A stretch of 64,000 nucleotides of DNA from Eledone cirrhosa (GCA_964016885.1 OZ024755.1:38688001-38752000); one strand, 5' to 3'; numbered from the stretch's first letter, positions 30,716 through 37,368 are shown. The notes: a model not told the origin generated them from the sequence alone. A program made the numbers and translations.

Positions 30716-31222
30716 TGTATACGTACATACATATATGTATACAGACGCACAGTAGCATGCATATATATATATATATATATATATATATATATATATATAT
30801 ATATATATATATATATATATATATATACGCTTATTATAACGCCGCTTTGTTCGTTTGTAAACAAACTGAACAGCCTGAATTTATGCCATACGGTGTTAAG
30901 GCTACCACGTCGCCTTTTTGTTCAACACTGACACAAGAACGATGTACTAGTTTCAAGCTTGTTAGCTATCATCAGCACCGTATACCCTTCTGCCAGATAG
31001 TTGAAAGTTCGAAAGTATGTACTTTCCTTATGAAAATTAACGGCTGAGCAGCCTAATTTGCATATCGAGTGAGCTAAGTCGGTCAGGCATACCGAAAACG
31101 ATAAGTTGAAATAAAATGAAAACGAAATTTCATTTCTCACTCTTAGTACGGCACTTACTTAAATGTAAGTATGTATGTATACGTACATACACATATGTAT
31201 ACAGACGCACAGTAGCATGCAT
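30716..31222 (-). mobile_element. Hammerhead-containing short element 'family B' (partial tandem, 460-bp period)
   Basis: ~48-bp terminal direct repeat (acagacgcacagtagcatgc at 30741 and 31201); HHR; octamer at 31056-31063; (TA)n flanks. Confidence 0.75.
30939..30981 (-). ncRNA. Minimal type-I hammerhead ribozyme
   Basis: ACGGUG-CUGAUGA-uAGCUaacaAGCUu-GAAA-CuaG-UA^CAUCGU. Confidence 0.85.
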
Positions 31223-32288
31223 ATATATATATATATATATATATATATATATATATATATATATATATAACAGGTACACATGATCAGTTCAAGGTTCGAT
31301 CTATCCTGACACTGGAATCAAAATCTCATCGGACCTCTGTACATATATCATAACAAAATAGTGAATGACATATATACATACATATAAATCTAATGATATA
31401 AACGTACAATATAATATATGAAACCTTAACAGGAGACAATGTATATAGAATATAAGAACATATAGTTTATTAAGATTATCTCAATCACAACATCAATAAC
31501 TTTAAATGTAATATATTTATGCTACTACTTGGTTGAGCTTTCACTATGTTGAGAGGTTAGGCTGCTATTTCTAGTTGTCGTAAAACTTTTTCCCGTCACT
31601 GCAGACGGCGACCGCGAGTATTGGTTTTTTGATAGTTCCATATTCCCTTTTCGTCGTTCTCAGTTCTGTATGTTAACAGGTCTAAGTTCAGATAGATCGA
31701 TAATCTTACAGAAGATCCAGATCGATCATCGAACTGCACCGATATTTGGTGAAATGTATTCATTAGTTGTGAAGTATACATATGAGGGAAAATATTTTAT
31801 GTATTAACTATCTATATTTTGAACTTTTGTTAAATCTTAATATGATACTGTAATGAACCATTATATAGATTGTCTCCTGTTAAAGTTTGATATATTCTAT
31901 TGTACATTTATATCATTGGATATCTATGTATGGATATTATTCATTATATATATAATGAATTCACAAGAAACAAAGCTGTGTTCAAAACATTTATTCACTT
32001 ACAATTGTTTCTTCCAAACCTAGGCTTGGAGTCTTCGGAGCAATTTTTAATGTTTGTACATATAATTGACCTCCCAGTCAACGCAAGAGACATACAGATA
32101 CATATATATATATTGATGTACAGTGTGGAGCGGCATATATTATACTATATCAGATCTAGTAGATATTGTATGTGTTAGTCATACATGGTGCATGCAAATA
32201 TGTCTTATTTATATAAGAGTATTGTCTGGCAAGGTATTATATGTAATACAAGCACTTTAAGCGAGTAAGCAATAGTACTATTATCGTG

Positions 32289-32488
32289 GTTGCAATGGGA
32301 GGGGGGGGGTATATTTTGTACAGATCGAATTAGTGTGTGTGCAGAAAAAGAAAGTTATAGTTTTCACATCCACCACCATTTTCACATCCATTTCTGGATG
32401 TGAAAATTATAACTTTCTTTTTCTCTTTTTCTGCACACATACTAATTCGATCTGTACAAAAAATACCCCCCCCCCCCCCACTGCAACA
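32289..32488. repeat. Imperfect fold-back, ~80-bp arms
   Basis: gggg...tgtacagatcgaattagt...cacatcca / tggatgtg...actaattcgatctgtaca...cccc. Confidence 0.8.
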
Positions 32489-32489
32489 A

Positions 32490-32582
32490 TATATTGATTT
32501 AATACTTCACTGCTCGCAAGTCTTTTTTAAGCTTCATATCATGTCTCCCTATTTTATCTGATGAGAACGCAAATATATATTT
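32490..32582 (+). mobile_element. Family D fragment with truncated hammerhead
   Basis: Homologous to 37780-37865; UUUUAU-CUGAUGA then interrupted by (TA)n. Confidence 0.65.
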
Positions 32583-32809: not shown

Positions 32810-33570
32810 TACAGCCAATTATCCACACAATACAATATAGTTAGCACCCGAAACATTTAATTGGGAATATACTCAGGTATTTCCTAATGTTTGTTGAGTG
32901 AGATGGAATTTGGCCGGAGTATCGCTTTTAGCTTTCTCCGATTATGTATTTATATATTTACTCTTGGAGCAACAGATATGAACTTTCCCGATATAAGGTA
33001 TGACTCTCTTTGATTATTTTTTATATGAATATTGATTGTTTGTTCTTGTAACTCATTCTGTTATTTTGCCCGATTTGCACATATAGTTATTTTTCATATC
33101 CAATTGAGTTCTTAGCACGTGGCTTGAATTATTGTCAGAGTTCAACGACCTGCGCATGTATTGTTTTTGGCGGTAGCTTCCTTCCTCCCGTTTTCTAGAC
33201 TGTGTGAGATTTTCTTTAGAACTGCTGGATTAACAACCTAGCAGTCCCCTCAAGCACTGATGGTAATTATCGCTAAATATTGATGTTGATTTGGTTATCA
33301 ATATTAATATTATTGGGTACTCACTGAAGATTTATAAGGTCCCACTTGAATAAGTATCTGTTGATCTTATAGAAGCTTCTACATAATTCGTCTAGGAAAT
33401 GATATATTTGATATATCTCATATGAAATTATACAGCCAATTACCCACAAAATACAATAGAGTTAGCACCCCAAACGTTTAATTGGGAATATACTCAGGTA
33501 TTTCCTAATGTTTGTTGAGTGAGTTAGAATTTGGCCGGAGTATCGCTTTTAGCTTTCTACGATTATGTAA
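32810..33570 (+). mobile_element. Family A element (terminal direct repeats 32810-32955 and 33430-33570; decayed HHR core at 33324)
   Basis: Direct repeat period ~620 bp; homology to 3627-4345. Confidence 0.65.
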
Positions 33571-34111
33571 TTATATATATATATATATATACATATATAT
33601 ATATATATATATACATATACATATATATATATATATACATATATATATATATATACATATATATATATATATACATATATATATATATATACATATATAT
33701 ATATACATATACATATATATATACATATACATATACATATATATATATATACATATATACATATACATATACATATACATATATATATATATACATATAT
33801 ATATACATACATATATATATACATATATATATACATATATACATATACATATATATACATATATATATATATACATATATATACATATATATATATATAC
33901 ATATACATATATATATATATACATATATATATATACATATATATATATACATATATACATATATATACATATATATATATATATACATATATACATATAT
34001 ACATATACATATATATATATACATATATATATACATATATATATATTACATATATACATATATACATATATACATATATATATATATATATATATATATA
34101 TATATATATAT

Positions 34112-34645
34112 AAAATGGAACAGAATGAAACGAAATTTCATTTCTCACTCTTAGTACGGCTGATACCTAAATATAAGTATGTATACGTACATACATATAT
34201 GTATACAGACGTACAGTAGTATGTATATATATACATACATGCACACATATATATATGTACGTATGGGTTTACAGAACATTTATTATAATTTTCGGTTTCT
34301 TTGTAAACAAATAGCCCGAATTACGCCGTACAGTGCTCGGCAACCATCGTCGCCCTTTTTGTTCAACACTGACACTGACACGTTTTCGGTACGTCCGGCC
34401 GAGGAACTCACTCGATATGCAAATTAGGCTGCTCAGCCGTTAATATGCATAAGGAAAGTATATACTTTCAAACGTTCAATCATCTGACAGAAAGGTATAC
34501 GATGCTGACGATAGCTAATAAGCTTGAAACTAGTACATCGTTCCTGTGTCAGTGTTGAACAAAAGGGCGACGATGATGGCAGAGCAGTGTACGGCGTAAT
34601 TCGGGCTGTTTGTTTACAAACAGCCCGAACATTATAATAAATGGT
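34112..34645. mobile_element. Family B element, permuted and inverted copy
   Basis: Antisense segment 34112-34376 joined to sense segment 34377-34645 carrying the octamer (34417-34424) and HHR. Confidence 0.75.
34499..34541 (+). ncRNA. Minimal type-I hammerhead ribozyme
   Basis: ACGAUG-CUGACGA-uAGCUaauaAGCUu-GAAA-CuaG-UA^CAUCGU. Confidence 0.87.
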
Positions 34646-36693
34646 ATATATATATATATATATATATATATATATATATATATATATATATATATATATA
34701 TATATGTATATATGTATATATATATATGCATATATATATATGTATATATATATATATATATGTATATATATATATATGCATATATATATGCATATATATA
34801 TATATGCATATATATATATATGTATATATATATATATGCATATATATATGCATATATATATATATGCATATATATATATATGTATATATATATACATGTA
34901 TATACATATATATGTATATATATATATATGTATATATATATATATATATGTGTGTGTGTATATATATATATATATATGTATATATAAATATATATGTGTG
35001 TGTGTGTATATATATATATATATATATGTATATATATGTATCTATATATATGTGTGTGTATATATATATATATATGTATCTATATATATATATATATATA
35101 TATATATATATATATATGTGTGTGTATATATATATATATATATGTATATATATGTATCTATATATATGTGTGTGTATATATATATATATATGTATCTATA
35201 TATATATATATATATATATATATATATATATGTGTGTGTGTATATATATATATATATATGTATATATATGTATCTATATATATGTGTGTGTATATATATA
35301 TATATATGTATCTATATATATATATATATATATGTATATATGTATATATATATATATATATATATATATATATGTATATATGTATATATATATATATATA
35401 TATATATGTATATGTATATATATATATATGTATATATATATATATATATATGTATATATATATATGTATATATATATATATGTATATATATATATATATG
35501 TGTGTGTGTATATATATATATATATATGTATATATATGTATCTATATATATGTGTGTATATATATATATATATGTATCTATATATATATATATATATATA
35601 TATATATATATATATATGTATATATATGTATATATGTATATATATGTATATATGTATATATATGTATATATGTATATATATGTATATATGTATATATGTA
35701 TATATATATATATATGTATATATATATATATATGTATATATATATATATGTATATATATATATATATGTATATATATATACGTATATATATATATATATG
35801 TATATATATATGTATATATATGTATATATATATGTATATATATGTATATATATGTATATATGTATATATATGTATATATGTATATATATGTATATATGTA
35901 TATATGTATATATATATATATATGTATATATATATATATATGTATATATATATATATGTATATATATATATATATGTATATATATATACGTATATATATA
36001 TATATATGTATATATATATATGTATATATATATATGTGTATATATATATATATATGCATATATATATATATGTATATATATGTATATATATATATATATA
36101 TATATATATATGTATATATATATATATATATGTATATATATATATATATGTATATATATATATATATATATATATATATATGTATATATATATATATATG
36201 TATATATATATGTATATATATATATATATATGTATATGTATATATATATATATATATATATAAATATAAATTAGCGAGAATCGTTTTCAGCTCAGGAATT
36301 AACGAAAATCAACGTCCGATATGTGTGGCAAGCGCTCGATGAATCATATATATATATATATATATATATATATATATATATATATATATATATGTATATA
36401 TATATATATATATATATATATGTATATATATATATGTATATATATATATGTATATATATATATATGTATATATATATATGTATATATATATATGTATATA
36501 TATATATATGTATATATATATATATGTATATATATATATATGTATATATATATATATGTATATATATATATATGTATATATATATATATGTATATATATA
36601 TATATATATGTATATATATATATATGTATATATATATATGTATATATATATATATATATATATATATATATATATATATATATATATATATAT
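34646..36693. repeat. (TA)n/(TATG) expansion with an 85-bp unique island at ~36262-36345
   Basis: Direct reading. Confidence 0.9.
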
Positions 36694-37368
36694 ATAAAAA
36701 CAAATAACGAAACGAAATTAAATTTCGCCTCGTTTGTAACTCACTTTTGTATGACTGACGCTTAAACAATTAAGTTAAAAATGTACATCCACATATGTAT
36801 ACTGAAATACTAGTATGCATATGAATACACACACGTGTACATATGTAGATGTACCGAGTTTTTCACTGGACACTTTACTGTGAGTGTCCAGCTATTCTGT
36901 ATGTAAACACACAGACAAACCGGTTTTTAGAGTCATACTGGTTTTCGAGGAAACACCTTTCCTCTATTCTCCAGAAAGCCAGACAAGGAATATTGGACTA
37001 GTTTCGATGTTGTTACATCTCATCAGCAATATTTACCTATCTTCCGGCCCCTCTAGAGAATCGTAAAAGCACATATCGTTATATGCTTTTTCTATGAAAA
37101 TTAGTAGTGGGCAGACTAATTTGCATAGAGCGTGGGTACGTACCGGCTCAGCGGAGACGATAAAAACAAATAACGAAACGAAATTAAATTTCGCCTCGTT
37201 TGTAACTCACTTTTGTATGACTGACGCTTAAACAATTAAGTTAAAAATGTACATCTACATATGTATACTGAAATACTAGCATGCATATGAATACACACAC
37301 GTGTACATATGTAGATGTACCGAGTTTTTCACTGGACACTTTACTGTGAGTGTCCAGCTATTCTGTAT
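36694..37368 (-). mobile_element. Hammerhead-containing short element 'family C' (1.45 tandem units, 466-bp period)
   Basis: 209-bp direct repeats 36694-36902 and 37160-37368; HHR; octamer at 37119-37126; distant relative of family B. Confidence 0.8.
36989..37033 (-). ncRNA. Minimal type-I hammerhead ribozyme, canonical GUC site
   Basis: AAUAUUG-CUGAUGA-GAUGUaacaACAUC-GAAA-CuaG-UC^CAAUAUU. Confidence 0.92.

Follow-up and report, generated by a model that had tools for sequence, protein, structure and literature searches.

Diverged hammerhead repeats of Eledone cirrhosa, likely non-LTR retrozymes, lie in TA microsatellites and carry paired POU-like sites

The window, by which we mean the whole 64,000-nucleotide stretch of Eledone cirrhosa DNA that was analysed (GCA_964016885.1 OZ024755.1:38688001-38752000), contains three copies of non-coding hammerhead repeats, two of family B (B1 and B2) and one of family C (Table 1). 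Family C is a partial tandem with a period of 466 nt, as an earlier note on this DNA had described, and its copies are identical at 207 of 209 nt. The period of 460 nt that the note gave for B1 did not hold: the duplicate comprises only 47 nt (46 of them identical) and lies across a (TA)n run that separates it from the main piece, so that the figure includes microsatellite. This run stands at the position of a complex linker in B2, from which a B unit of about 430 nt can be read. B2 itself, previously taken for a permuted copy, is instead 5′-inverted, with an antisense part (34112-34375) and a sense part (34381-34645) meeting at adjacent positions of the unit. The 3′ end of its inverted arm is the main TTAT junction, where it meets (TA)n, and the 5′ end falls about 10 nt past the predicted cut, accompanied by a 5-nt slip duplicate (34376-34380); the direct arm begins at the unit base next after the TTAT junction. 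The 3′ end of the short inverted piece of C maps to a secondary end cluster near 37229-37234. Because (TA)n flanks all three copies, no target-site duplication can be delimited.

Table 1. Positions of the repeat copies and their features, counted from the first letter of the window.
Feature	Position	Strand	Remark
B1 47-nt duplicate, start of X segment	30716..30762	-	46/47 identical to 31176-31222
B1 (TA)n between duplicate and main piece	30763-30828		
B1 main piece (segments X, Y, ribozyme, Z)	30829..31222	-	(TA)n both sides
B1 equivalent of the C PSE look-alike block	30880-30895		
B1 type I hammerhead	30939..30981	-	CUGAUGA 30975-30969; predicted cut after 30945 (GUA)
B1 POU-like site 2, TATGAAAATTAA	31029..31040	+	inverted partner of site 1
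B1 POU-like site 1, TATGCAAATTAG	31053..31064	-	
B2 inverted arm (Z, linker, X)	34112..34380	-	
B2 direct arm (Y, ribozyme, Z)	34381..34645	+	ends in (TA)n
B2 POU-like site 1, TATGCAAATTAG	34416..34427	+	
B2 POU-like site 2, TATGCATATTAA	34440..34451	-	
B2 type I hammerhead	34499..34541	+	CUGACGA 34505-34511; predicted cut after 34535 (GUA)
C full 466-nt unit	36694..37159	-	3′ end is the preferred TA-joined junction
C 13-bp stem-loop	36706..36734	-	predicted fold; 12 nt before preferred 3′ end
C block, moderately conserved, weak PSE look-alike	36927..36944	-	about 170-180 nt downstream of octamer
C type I hammerhead	36989..37033	-	CUGAUGA 37026-37020; predicted cut after 36996 (GUC)
C POU-like site 2, TATGAAAATTAG	37093..37104	+	inverted partner
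C POU-like site 1, TATGCAAATTAG	37116..37127	-	37117 variable, outside 8-nt core
C second copy, 5′-truncated, 209 nt	37160..37368	-	207 nt identical to 36694-36902
C short inverted piece with reiterated TTTTTAAC	37369..37410	+	joins (TA)n

B and C, described earlier as strongly diverged, are 61-63% identical and form one homologous superfamily (local alignment score 114; maximum of shuffled sequences, 44). Both fold far better than shuffled RNA (C, z = −8.4; B1, z = −3.1), and a hairpin with the loop GUUUAC is conserved in sequence between B and C. Neither unit holds a credible ORF, the only ORFs being short or microsatellite ones.

Each copy has one type I hammerhead at the place claimed for it, although none matches Rfam at the gathering threshold. 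The predicted shape consists of a helix I of 6 to 7 bp with an extension, a helix II of 4 to 5 bp and a weak palindromic helix III; under the definitions of canonical and minimal hammerheads in PMC4209133, this modelled fold is the canonical retrozyme shape and not the minimal one. In stems I and II, 9 of 49 predicted pairs have double-sided changes between B and C. The cut triplet of C is GUC in the window and GUU in most of the depth of sequencing run X1. Helix III resembles that of the axolotl ribozyme HHR_Amex1, which is also a weak palindrome and works as a dimer (PMC7229834). No copy in the window carries two ribozymes (0/3), and therefore none could release a monomer alone. Likewise, every B and C copy of the window falls outside the "active retrozyme" category of a 2026 preprint (Li, Clavereau & Pollet 2026, 10.64898/2026.07.22.740005), which requires two tandem ribozymes at one locus.

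Family C is highly repeated, with 1062 matching contigs in run X1, a depth that is not a copy number. Its head-to-tail joints were found in all four runs (three at 466 nt, one at 463 nt with 3 extra letters), and it closes into a 466-nt cycle in two of them. The self-closing contigs of 495 and 496 nt in X4 and X6 were rejected as proof of circular RNA, because low-coverage tandem or permuted DNA looks alike and the kinds of run are unrecorded. Private variants common to both C repeats, considered as a sign of a circular template, were also set aside as possible subfamily or species differences. The best-matching run contains only 0.66 of the words of C, and some alleles of the window are wholly absent.

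Among the best 7 of 35 loose ends of family C, the best-supported are junctions with TA runs at 37159-37160 (12 contigs), 37229 (6 contigs) and 37234 (3 contigs), and C and B2 share one homologous end junction. Such preferred ends match the expectation for internal initiation by a Penelope reverse transcriptase. In PAc, reverse transcription starts at fixed internal positions beside a stem-loop, and insertion in vitro did not need ribozyme cleavage (PMC11167929); partial tandems, 5′ inversions and (TA)n targeting are described for PLEs (PMC8557442). The B and C copies show the same insertion structure, namely 5′ truncation, a partial tandem, an inverted 5′ piece and fixed 3′ starts, and by analogy the stem-loop near the preferred 3′ end of C is a candidate start signal for the reverse transcriptase. 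The earlier proposal that permuted starts fit a circular template is thereby weakened, since the ends concentrate at favoured sites joined to TA and B2 proved to be inverted. Candidate helpers in the window are PLE fragments, one with a GIY-YIG match and one with a Hydra-type CxCx5C linker.

We conclude that B and C are likely two diverged families of non-LTR retrozymes, which Penelope-type enzymes probably inserted as copies in TA microsatellites. They add members to an element class that is already known. The canonical type I shape and the lack of an ORF uphold the reading of B and C as retrozyme-like, non-coding, predicted self-cleaving units of about 430-470 nt, and the units combine this hammerhead with head-to-tail arrangement and high repetition without an LTR-type coding body. 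Metazoan non-LTR retrozymes (PMC7229834; 10.64898/2026.07.22.740005) are likewise head-to-tail non-coding units of low GC with a canonical type I hammerhead and highly structured RNA, and they co-occur with PLEs; their units measure 150-450 bp, so that B and C fall within or just above this range. In contrast to them, B and C show (TA)n insertion with preferred ends and inversions as well as paired POU sites, and their window copies hold one ribozyme each. With the pseudo-LTRs of PLEs (the (TA)n-targeting Hydra clade, PMC8557442; PAc, PMC11167929), B and C share partial tandems, 5′ truncation, inverted 5′ pieces, fixed internal ends by a stem-loop, AT-rich targets and a type I hammerhead, but they have no RT/GIY-YIG ORF, a canonical instead of a minimal ribozyme, and a self-closing unit. 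We found no paper on a cephalopod retrozyme.

All three copies carry the octamer at the places given in the earlier note (31063..31056, minus strand; 34417..34424, plus strand; 37126..37119, minus strand), each time inside the exact 12-mer TATGCAAATTAG, which occurs three times in the window against 0.03 expected by composition, the three being homologous and so not independent. As claimed, the octamer lies 5′ of the hammerhead, with gaps of 80, 80 and 92 nt to CUGA and of 74-85 nt to stem I. A second POU-like site is indeed nearby; it is on the opposite strand, however, as the inverted partner of the first, and therefore the pair is also predicted to form an RNA hairpin. In the Y-Z half, no other identical B-C run is as long as these two sites (12 and 11 nt; ribozyme core, 9 and 9 nt), and the X segment has another run of 12 nt (GTATACATATGT). 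Since the two families share descent, the presence of the octamer in both does not count as independent evidence. The octamer core is invariant at the 5% level in four sequencing runs, but the conservation claimed for it is not significant within family C: none of the 16 core positions varies, against 1.24 expected (P = 0.27; 12-mers, P = 0.72), and this within-family test has no statistical power. None of the seven other hammerhead contexts tested in the window has the site. Judged from the motifs, the octamer pair is possibly a built-in promoter of the units.

Comparison with snRNA-type promoters gave a looser match. Vertebrate snRNA promoters have a DSE with an octamer at −250 to −170 and a PSE at −65 to −48 (PMC9652321, PMC3499247). 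B and C similarly have an octamer and, at a comparable distance downstream, a loosely PSE-like block, but the match is weak: seen by eye in B1 and C, the block is poorly kept in B2 and lacks the spacing of the key bases of the human PSE, a yardstick that may not be the cephalopod PSE. We found no convincing PSE in the units, nor, on inspection by eye, a TATA at the U6 position, and no mollusc PSE consensus in the literature. Like B and C, newt satellite 2 is a repeat that contains a hammerhead, has a weak palindromic helix III and includes an octamer in its unit. Its promoter reportedly consists of an octamer, which is single, and a PSE. B and C differ from it in having two inverted POU sites and no established PSE, and in being dispersed insertions of 1-1.5 units in microsatellites. 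An snRNA-type Pol II promoter is ascribed to the newt repeat in a passage of PMC2220036 that cites Coats et al. 1994, and an octamer/snRNA promoter of hammerhead repeats was on record for the newt only in the literature that we found.

Scans with a pattern of octamer plus hammerhead yielded one further case, L005, a hammerhead locus of another lophotrochozoan without overall homology to B or C (no homology beyond shuffles; likewise for L003 and L004). It has three exact POU sites and one with a single mismatch, at −201, −186, −96 and −87 from CUGA, where composition predicts 7e−5 exact 12-mers per 200 nt. L005 is a single locus, found by a pattern that requires an octamer, and three of its four sites lay beyond the pattern. 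Its 12-mer pairs have two opposite geometries, tail-to-tail with a 2-nt spacer and head-to-head overlapping. The nearest site (−87) compares with −89 and −101 in B and C, an offset within the range that the pattern allowed; its four flanking bases, outside the demands of the pattern, are the same as in B and C (0.006 by composition). The presence of four POU sites at a non-homologous locus favours a DNA-binding site. L005 sits in an intron of a KChIP gene, which we take to be neuronal, and its hammerhead has the PLE minimal shape. In the metagenome scan, 11 of the 14 distinct loci listed (18 with 4 duplicates) have no hammerhead stems, and the other real-looking hammerheads (L003/L008 and L004) have no extended site. 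A stem I of more than 1 bp was present in 0 of 19 loci in viral contigs, and GTDB gave one locus, without stems.

Three other explanations have to be weighed against POU-aided transcription of retrozymes. The octamer pair could be kept as a sequence-fixed RNA hairpin, recognised by a Penelope RT or a host RNA-binding protein, with transcription by read-through or from another site. The hairpin is predicted in all three copies and is predicted to be stable (pairing of 0.87 or higher at 12 of the 13 positions); B1 and C both retain a C-U mismatch, the two variants seen in the pair, at 37117 and 37093, preserve G-U pairing, and the GUUUAC-loop hairpin indicates that sequence-fixed hairpins do occur in these RNAs. 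We nevertheless consider this explanation rather unlikely: the POU stem has no double-sided change between B and C, whereas the ribozyme stems have several, and the two geometries at L005 give different RNA hairpins but one same double-stranded DNA site. Mere shared ancestry, with a pair that is functionless now and a host enhancer by chance near the L005 hammerhead, is less probable still. An identical run of at least 12 bases anywhere in the B-C alignment is not unusual (P = 0.35), the depletion of variants is not significant, and L005, picked by the search pattern, lies in an intron where the POU sites could be the host's. Against this, both sites head the conserved runs of the Y-Z half, with a joint match probability of 8e−5 if they had been chosen beforehand (the choice was post hoc), and the offset and flanking bases at L005 resemble those of B and C.

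We regard it as very improbable that the two families represent an autonomous PLE, either as its solo pseudo-LTRs or as its 3′ ends, in which case the octamer would be the PLE's own promoter. PLEs characteristically show preferred 3′ ends and inverted 5′ pieces, retrozymes derive from pLTRs (Li, Clavereau & Pollet 2026, 10.64898/2026.07.22.740005), and the L005 hammerhead has the PLE minimal shape. However, no ORF adjoins any of the three copies (B1, B2 and C), and comparison with the pLTRs of the window's PLE fragments revealed no homology (18 segments; scores of 14-37, which shuffled sequences also reach). In addition, the ribozyme is shaped like a canonical retrozyme hammerhead, X4 and X6 yield a self-closing consensus, and no C contig in four runs continues into at least 20 unlike letters, contig evidence that weighs little because the contigs are short.

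Building on the observed motifs, homology, unit length, high repetition, TA-joined preferred ends and partial-tandem and inverted insertion shapes, we favour, with some confidence, an account of diverged retrozymes with POU-aided transcription, predicted self-cleavage as tandem dimers, and copying by a Penelope-like RT from preferred internal sites. We give an even chance to the step in which a POU protein would bind the paired DNA sites and boost transcription through head-to-tail copies; self-promotion by the octamer is plausible from the motifs. By analogy with known elements, the weak palindromic helix III would pair between two ribozymes and so cut out monomers, and a host ligase may circularise the released monomers. 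A borrowed Penelope RT/GIY-YIG protein would very probably nick (TA)n and prime by the RNA stem-loop at one or both DNA ends, giving truncated tandems and inversions.

Intense transcription has been reported for animal retrozymes. Apart from a Pol III case in schistosomes, we found no host promoter named in the literature for invertebrate non-LTR retrozymes, and PMC7229834 uses the word "promoter" twice, each time for T7. The POU pair, conserved in two octopus families and at L005, offers a concrete 35-bp target for what drives retrozymes, and the insertion junctions map where on a non-autonomous RNA a Penelope reverse transcriptase likely starts, besides suggesting a helper that targets (TA)n. 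A more far-reaching possibility, which we consider doubtful, is that hammerhead retroelements throughout Bilateria (newt, octopus and another lophotrochozoan) recurrently use paired POU/octamer sites as an internal promoter module, perhaps an ancient one, and that the octopus family gives rise to abundant 466-nt RNA circles, A-to-I edited in the octamer hairpin. If true, such a module would explain the heavy transcription of retrozymes, and A-to-I edits could return to the genome in the promoter sites of newly made copies.

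Families B and C, two diverged hammerhead repeat families, are real features of the window. In sense orientation, their segments run Y, ribozyme, Z, linker, and X. Copy C consists of a 209-nt 5′-truncated copy, a full unit (37159 to 36694), and a 42-nt inverted piece with reiterated TTTTTAAC. B1 comprises an X-Y-ribozyme-Z piece with a TA run on either side and, in addition, a duplicate of only 47 nt; the B period of 460 nt proposed in the earlier note is thus partly microsatellite. B2, which the same note called a permuted copy, is a copy built not by simple permutation but of two arms with outward 3′ ends and adjacent breakpoints. 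The left arm starts ~10 nt past the cut site and ends at the TTAT junction common to C, while the right arm starts at the very next unit base and ends with Z. Twin priming is known from L1 work, and the adjacent breakpoints suggest that it occurred at B2 on an RNA exceeding one unit, whose 5′ end, judging from this one copy, would be the ribozyme cut. The two Z copies of B2 are only 86% alike (97/113), a divergence more consistent with a linear template of two units, or with an insertion of some age, than with a newly formed circular monomer. A 78-nt minisatellite at 49939-50503, derived from the B linker and the start of X (88-89% identity to B2), is an amplified ribozyme-less B piece with TA runs on either side.

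Across the window, a descriptor scan detected 11 motifs resembling type I hammerheads, including those of B1, B2, and C. All three carry CUGANGA and GAAACUAGUH, a helix II of 4-5 bp with an AACA (B1, C) or AAUA (B2) loop, and a helix I of 6-7 bp with an extension beyond an internal loop. By the definitions in PMC4209133, this shape is canonical and not PLE (Penelope-like element) minimal. Its single pair under a palindromic tetraloop resembles axolotl HHR_Amex1, and amphibian hammerheads of that kind require dimers (PMC7229834). Predicted folds are stronger than those of shuffled sequences for C (z = −8.4; 0/100 shuffles equally good) and B1 (z = −3.1; 1/100). Double-sided changes among the three copies affect 9 of 49 predicted pairs, all within helices I, II, or the helix I extension.

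Six sequencing runs, none of them recorded as RNA, contain family C, and four were compared against the unit at 36903-37368. The 1062 contigs in run X1, a measure of depth and not of copy number, indicate that family C is highly repeated. The head-to-tail joint was seen in all four runs compared, and X4 and X6 each hold one self-closing contig (495 or 496 nt). The X4 contig starts exactly at unit boundary 37159. Among the 7 of 35 loose ends listed, four lie in TA runs on the sense 3′ side (37159, 37160, 37229, and 37234, with 1, 11, 6, and 3 contigs, respectively) and three lie elsewhere, with a single contig each; this clustering indicates that ends are preferred, not random. These preferred ends weaken the circular-template reading that the earlier note had drawn from permuted start points. 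The window copy has C at cleavage-site base 36996, but U prevails in X1 (81% of depth) and is also the base in X5 and X6; most of family C may thus use a GUU triplet.

The window unit differs from the X1 majority at 12 positions, 10 of which replace AT by GC, namely six sense A>G and four sense U>C. Inside the octamer hairpin, sense A to G at 37117 (UAG context) occurs in X4, X6, and 79% of X5 depth, vs 4% of X1 depth; 37093, likewise UAG, is altered in X4 and unchanged in X1. ADAR prefers UAG. X5 carries the organism label of X1 and is dominated by alleles minor in X1. These changes would fit A-to-I editing in RNA runs or minor-subfamily expression, but other species or alleles would look alike, and we give the changes no evidential weight.

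The main loose end lies 12 nt past a 13-bp stem-loop of C. In PMC11167929, Penelope reverse transcriptase initiates internally in a stem-loop, uses AT-rich targets, and extends both DNA strands; the main C end shares this pattern of an internal end next to a stem-loop at an AT-rich site. PMC8557442 describes PLEs with partial tandems and with 5′ copies in inverted orientation, as well as a Hydra clade that has a CxCx5C linker and targets (TA)n. A fragment with such a linker at 9800-10432, which has six longer homologues and no match in a Pfam search, is a candidate helper for B and C. The PLE at 4591-7393 encodes a GIY-YIG domain (Pfam E 6e−5). The window is AT-rich, with many (TA)n runs and retroelement debris; its LINE ORF at 44431-46857 has, among the best 120 of 817 matches, its highest identity (56%) and sole named match in Argonauta hians, an octopod. 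The abundant SINE presumably resembles an octopus SINE. Both observations point to an octopus as the likely host.

Coordinates of repeat features in the window and of metagenome hammerheads
Feature	Position	Remarks
B1	30829-31222	minus strand
B2	34112-34645	
C	36694-37368	minus strand
Family A	37611-38021, 38294-38709, 42386-42568, 32289-32572	palindromic tail-out pairs; minimal-type hammerheads (GAAA-UGCGCA-UA)
Hammerhead family, inverted pair	39289-39679	
Hammerhead family copy related to end of 4591-7393 PLE	62373-62872	
PLE	4591-7393	1058-nt inverted pair; RT C-terminal piece; hammerhead near 7201
PLE fragment with CxCx5C linker	9800-11502	
Palindromic non-autonomous derivative of 9800-11502 PLE 3′ end	61840-62321	hammerhead-like motif, altered core
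Broken LINEs, three	43850-46860, 47200-49550, 12400-17100	RVT_1 in one
One SINE, many copies	3770-3936, 12061-12277, 52206-52420, 54330-56217	
46-bp satellite	21109-26486	117 copies
29-bp array	59740-60698	33 copies
21-bp arrays within large inverted repeat	53220-57699	
Hammerheads with GAAACUAGU	L004:960-1030, 376-480; L003:523-649	host-like metagenome DNA

The octamers lie where the earlier note had placed them, and the octamer/POU pair (two inverted 12-mers with 8-nt cores) is kept in all three copies. Its sites, with 12 and 11 nt, are the longest stretches identical between B and C within Y-Z. Against this, the families are homologous, so that retention in B and C is not independent evidence; an identical run of at least 12 nt anywhere in their alignment has P = 0.35, and X holds a run of equal length (12 nt). 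Of 36 positions that vary in family C in the four runs, none lies in the 16 core bases, which does not exceed chance (1.24 expected, P = 0.27), and two lie within the 12-mers (24 bases in all). All this would suit a neutral pair, a reading that we nonetheless hold to be improbable given the length of the two Y-Z runs and the four sites of a non-homologous metagenome locus, L005.

This locus, the one independent line of evidence, came from a metagenome scan for octamer plus hammerhead core that demanded only 8 bases of one site; of the 18 loci listed (14 distinct), three show genuine hammerhead folds and lie in DNA of animal type. L005 lies within a KChIP-gene intron, and the exon (87% identical to bivalve protein, 81% to Octopus proteins) points to a likely source in a lophotrochozoan different from the window host. 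Sequence comparison found no overall homology of L005 to B or C. Three exact TATGCAAATTAG sites and one single-mismatch site, including a perfect inverted pair, lie ≤201 nt from CUGA. The pair in B and C is a confident predicted hairpin, as a purely RNA function would have it; that function is less likely, since the stem has no double-sided change, which we count in favor of the octamer, and since the two site geometries of L005 form different RNA hairpins with the same DNA site, which favors protein binding to DNA. The extended site resembles POU-domain optima. L005 is one locus without control, for which a host enhancer is a possible alternative. The best site in L004 has two mismatches, and L003 has none. 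A POU site is likewise absent from all seven other window hammerhead contexts tested (three of five family A copies, two of family D, one of E, and one PLE). L004 also contains an inverted decayed hammerhead copy, PLE-style.

According to PMC9652321 and PMC3499247, the octamer of snRNA promoters lies between −250 and −170, and their PSE between −65 and −48; the newt promoter is known as cited in PMC2220036. B1 and C have a moderately conserved block ~170-180 nt downstream of the octamer. Because this block does not reproduce human PSE key-base spacing and B2 keeps it poorly, an snRNA-type promoter in B and C is not established. From sequence, we rank a DNA promoter element above the hairpin and neutral readings of the POU pair, at about even chances.

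Non-LTR retrozymes are an already described class (PMC7229834; 2026 preprint 10.64898/2026.07.22.740005), the supplements of the preprint covering 35 species with only insects and one coral as invertebrates. In searches of an open-access library, we found no description of an octamer with retrozymes or PLE pseudo-LTRs and none of cephalopod hammerheads; supplementary alignments of PMC8557442 and PMC4209133 may include octopus elements. With considerable confidence, we assign B and C to the non-LTR retrozymes, as a new member that probably belongs to a cephalopod and bears Penelope-type insertion marks.
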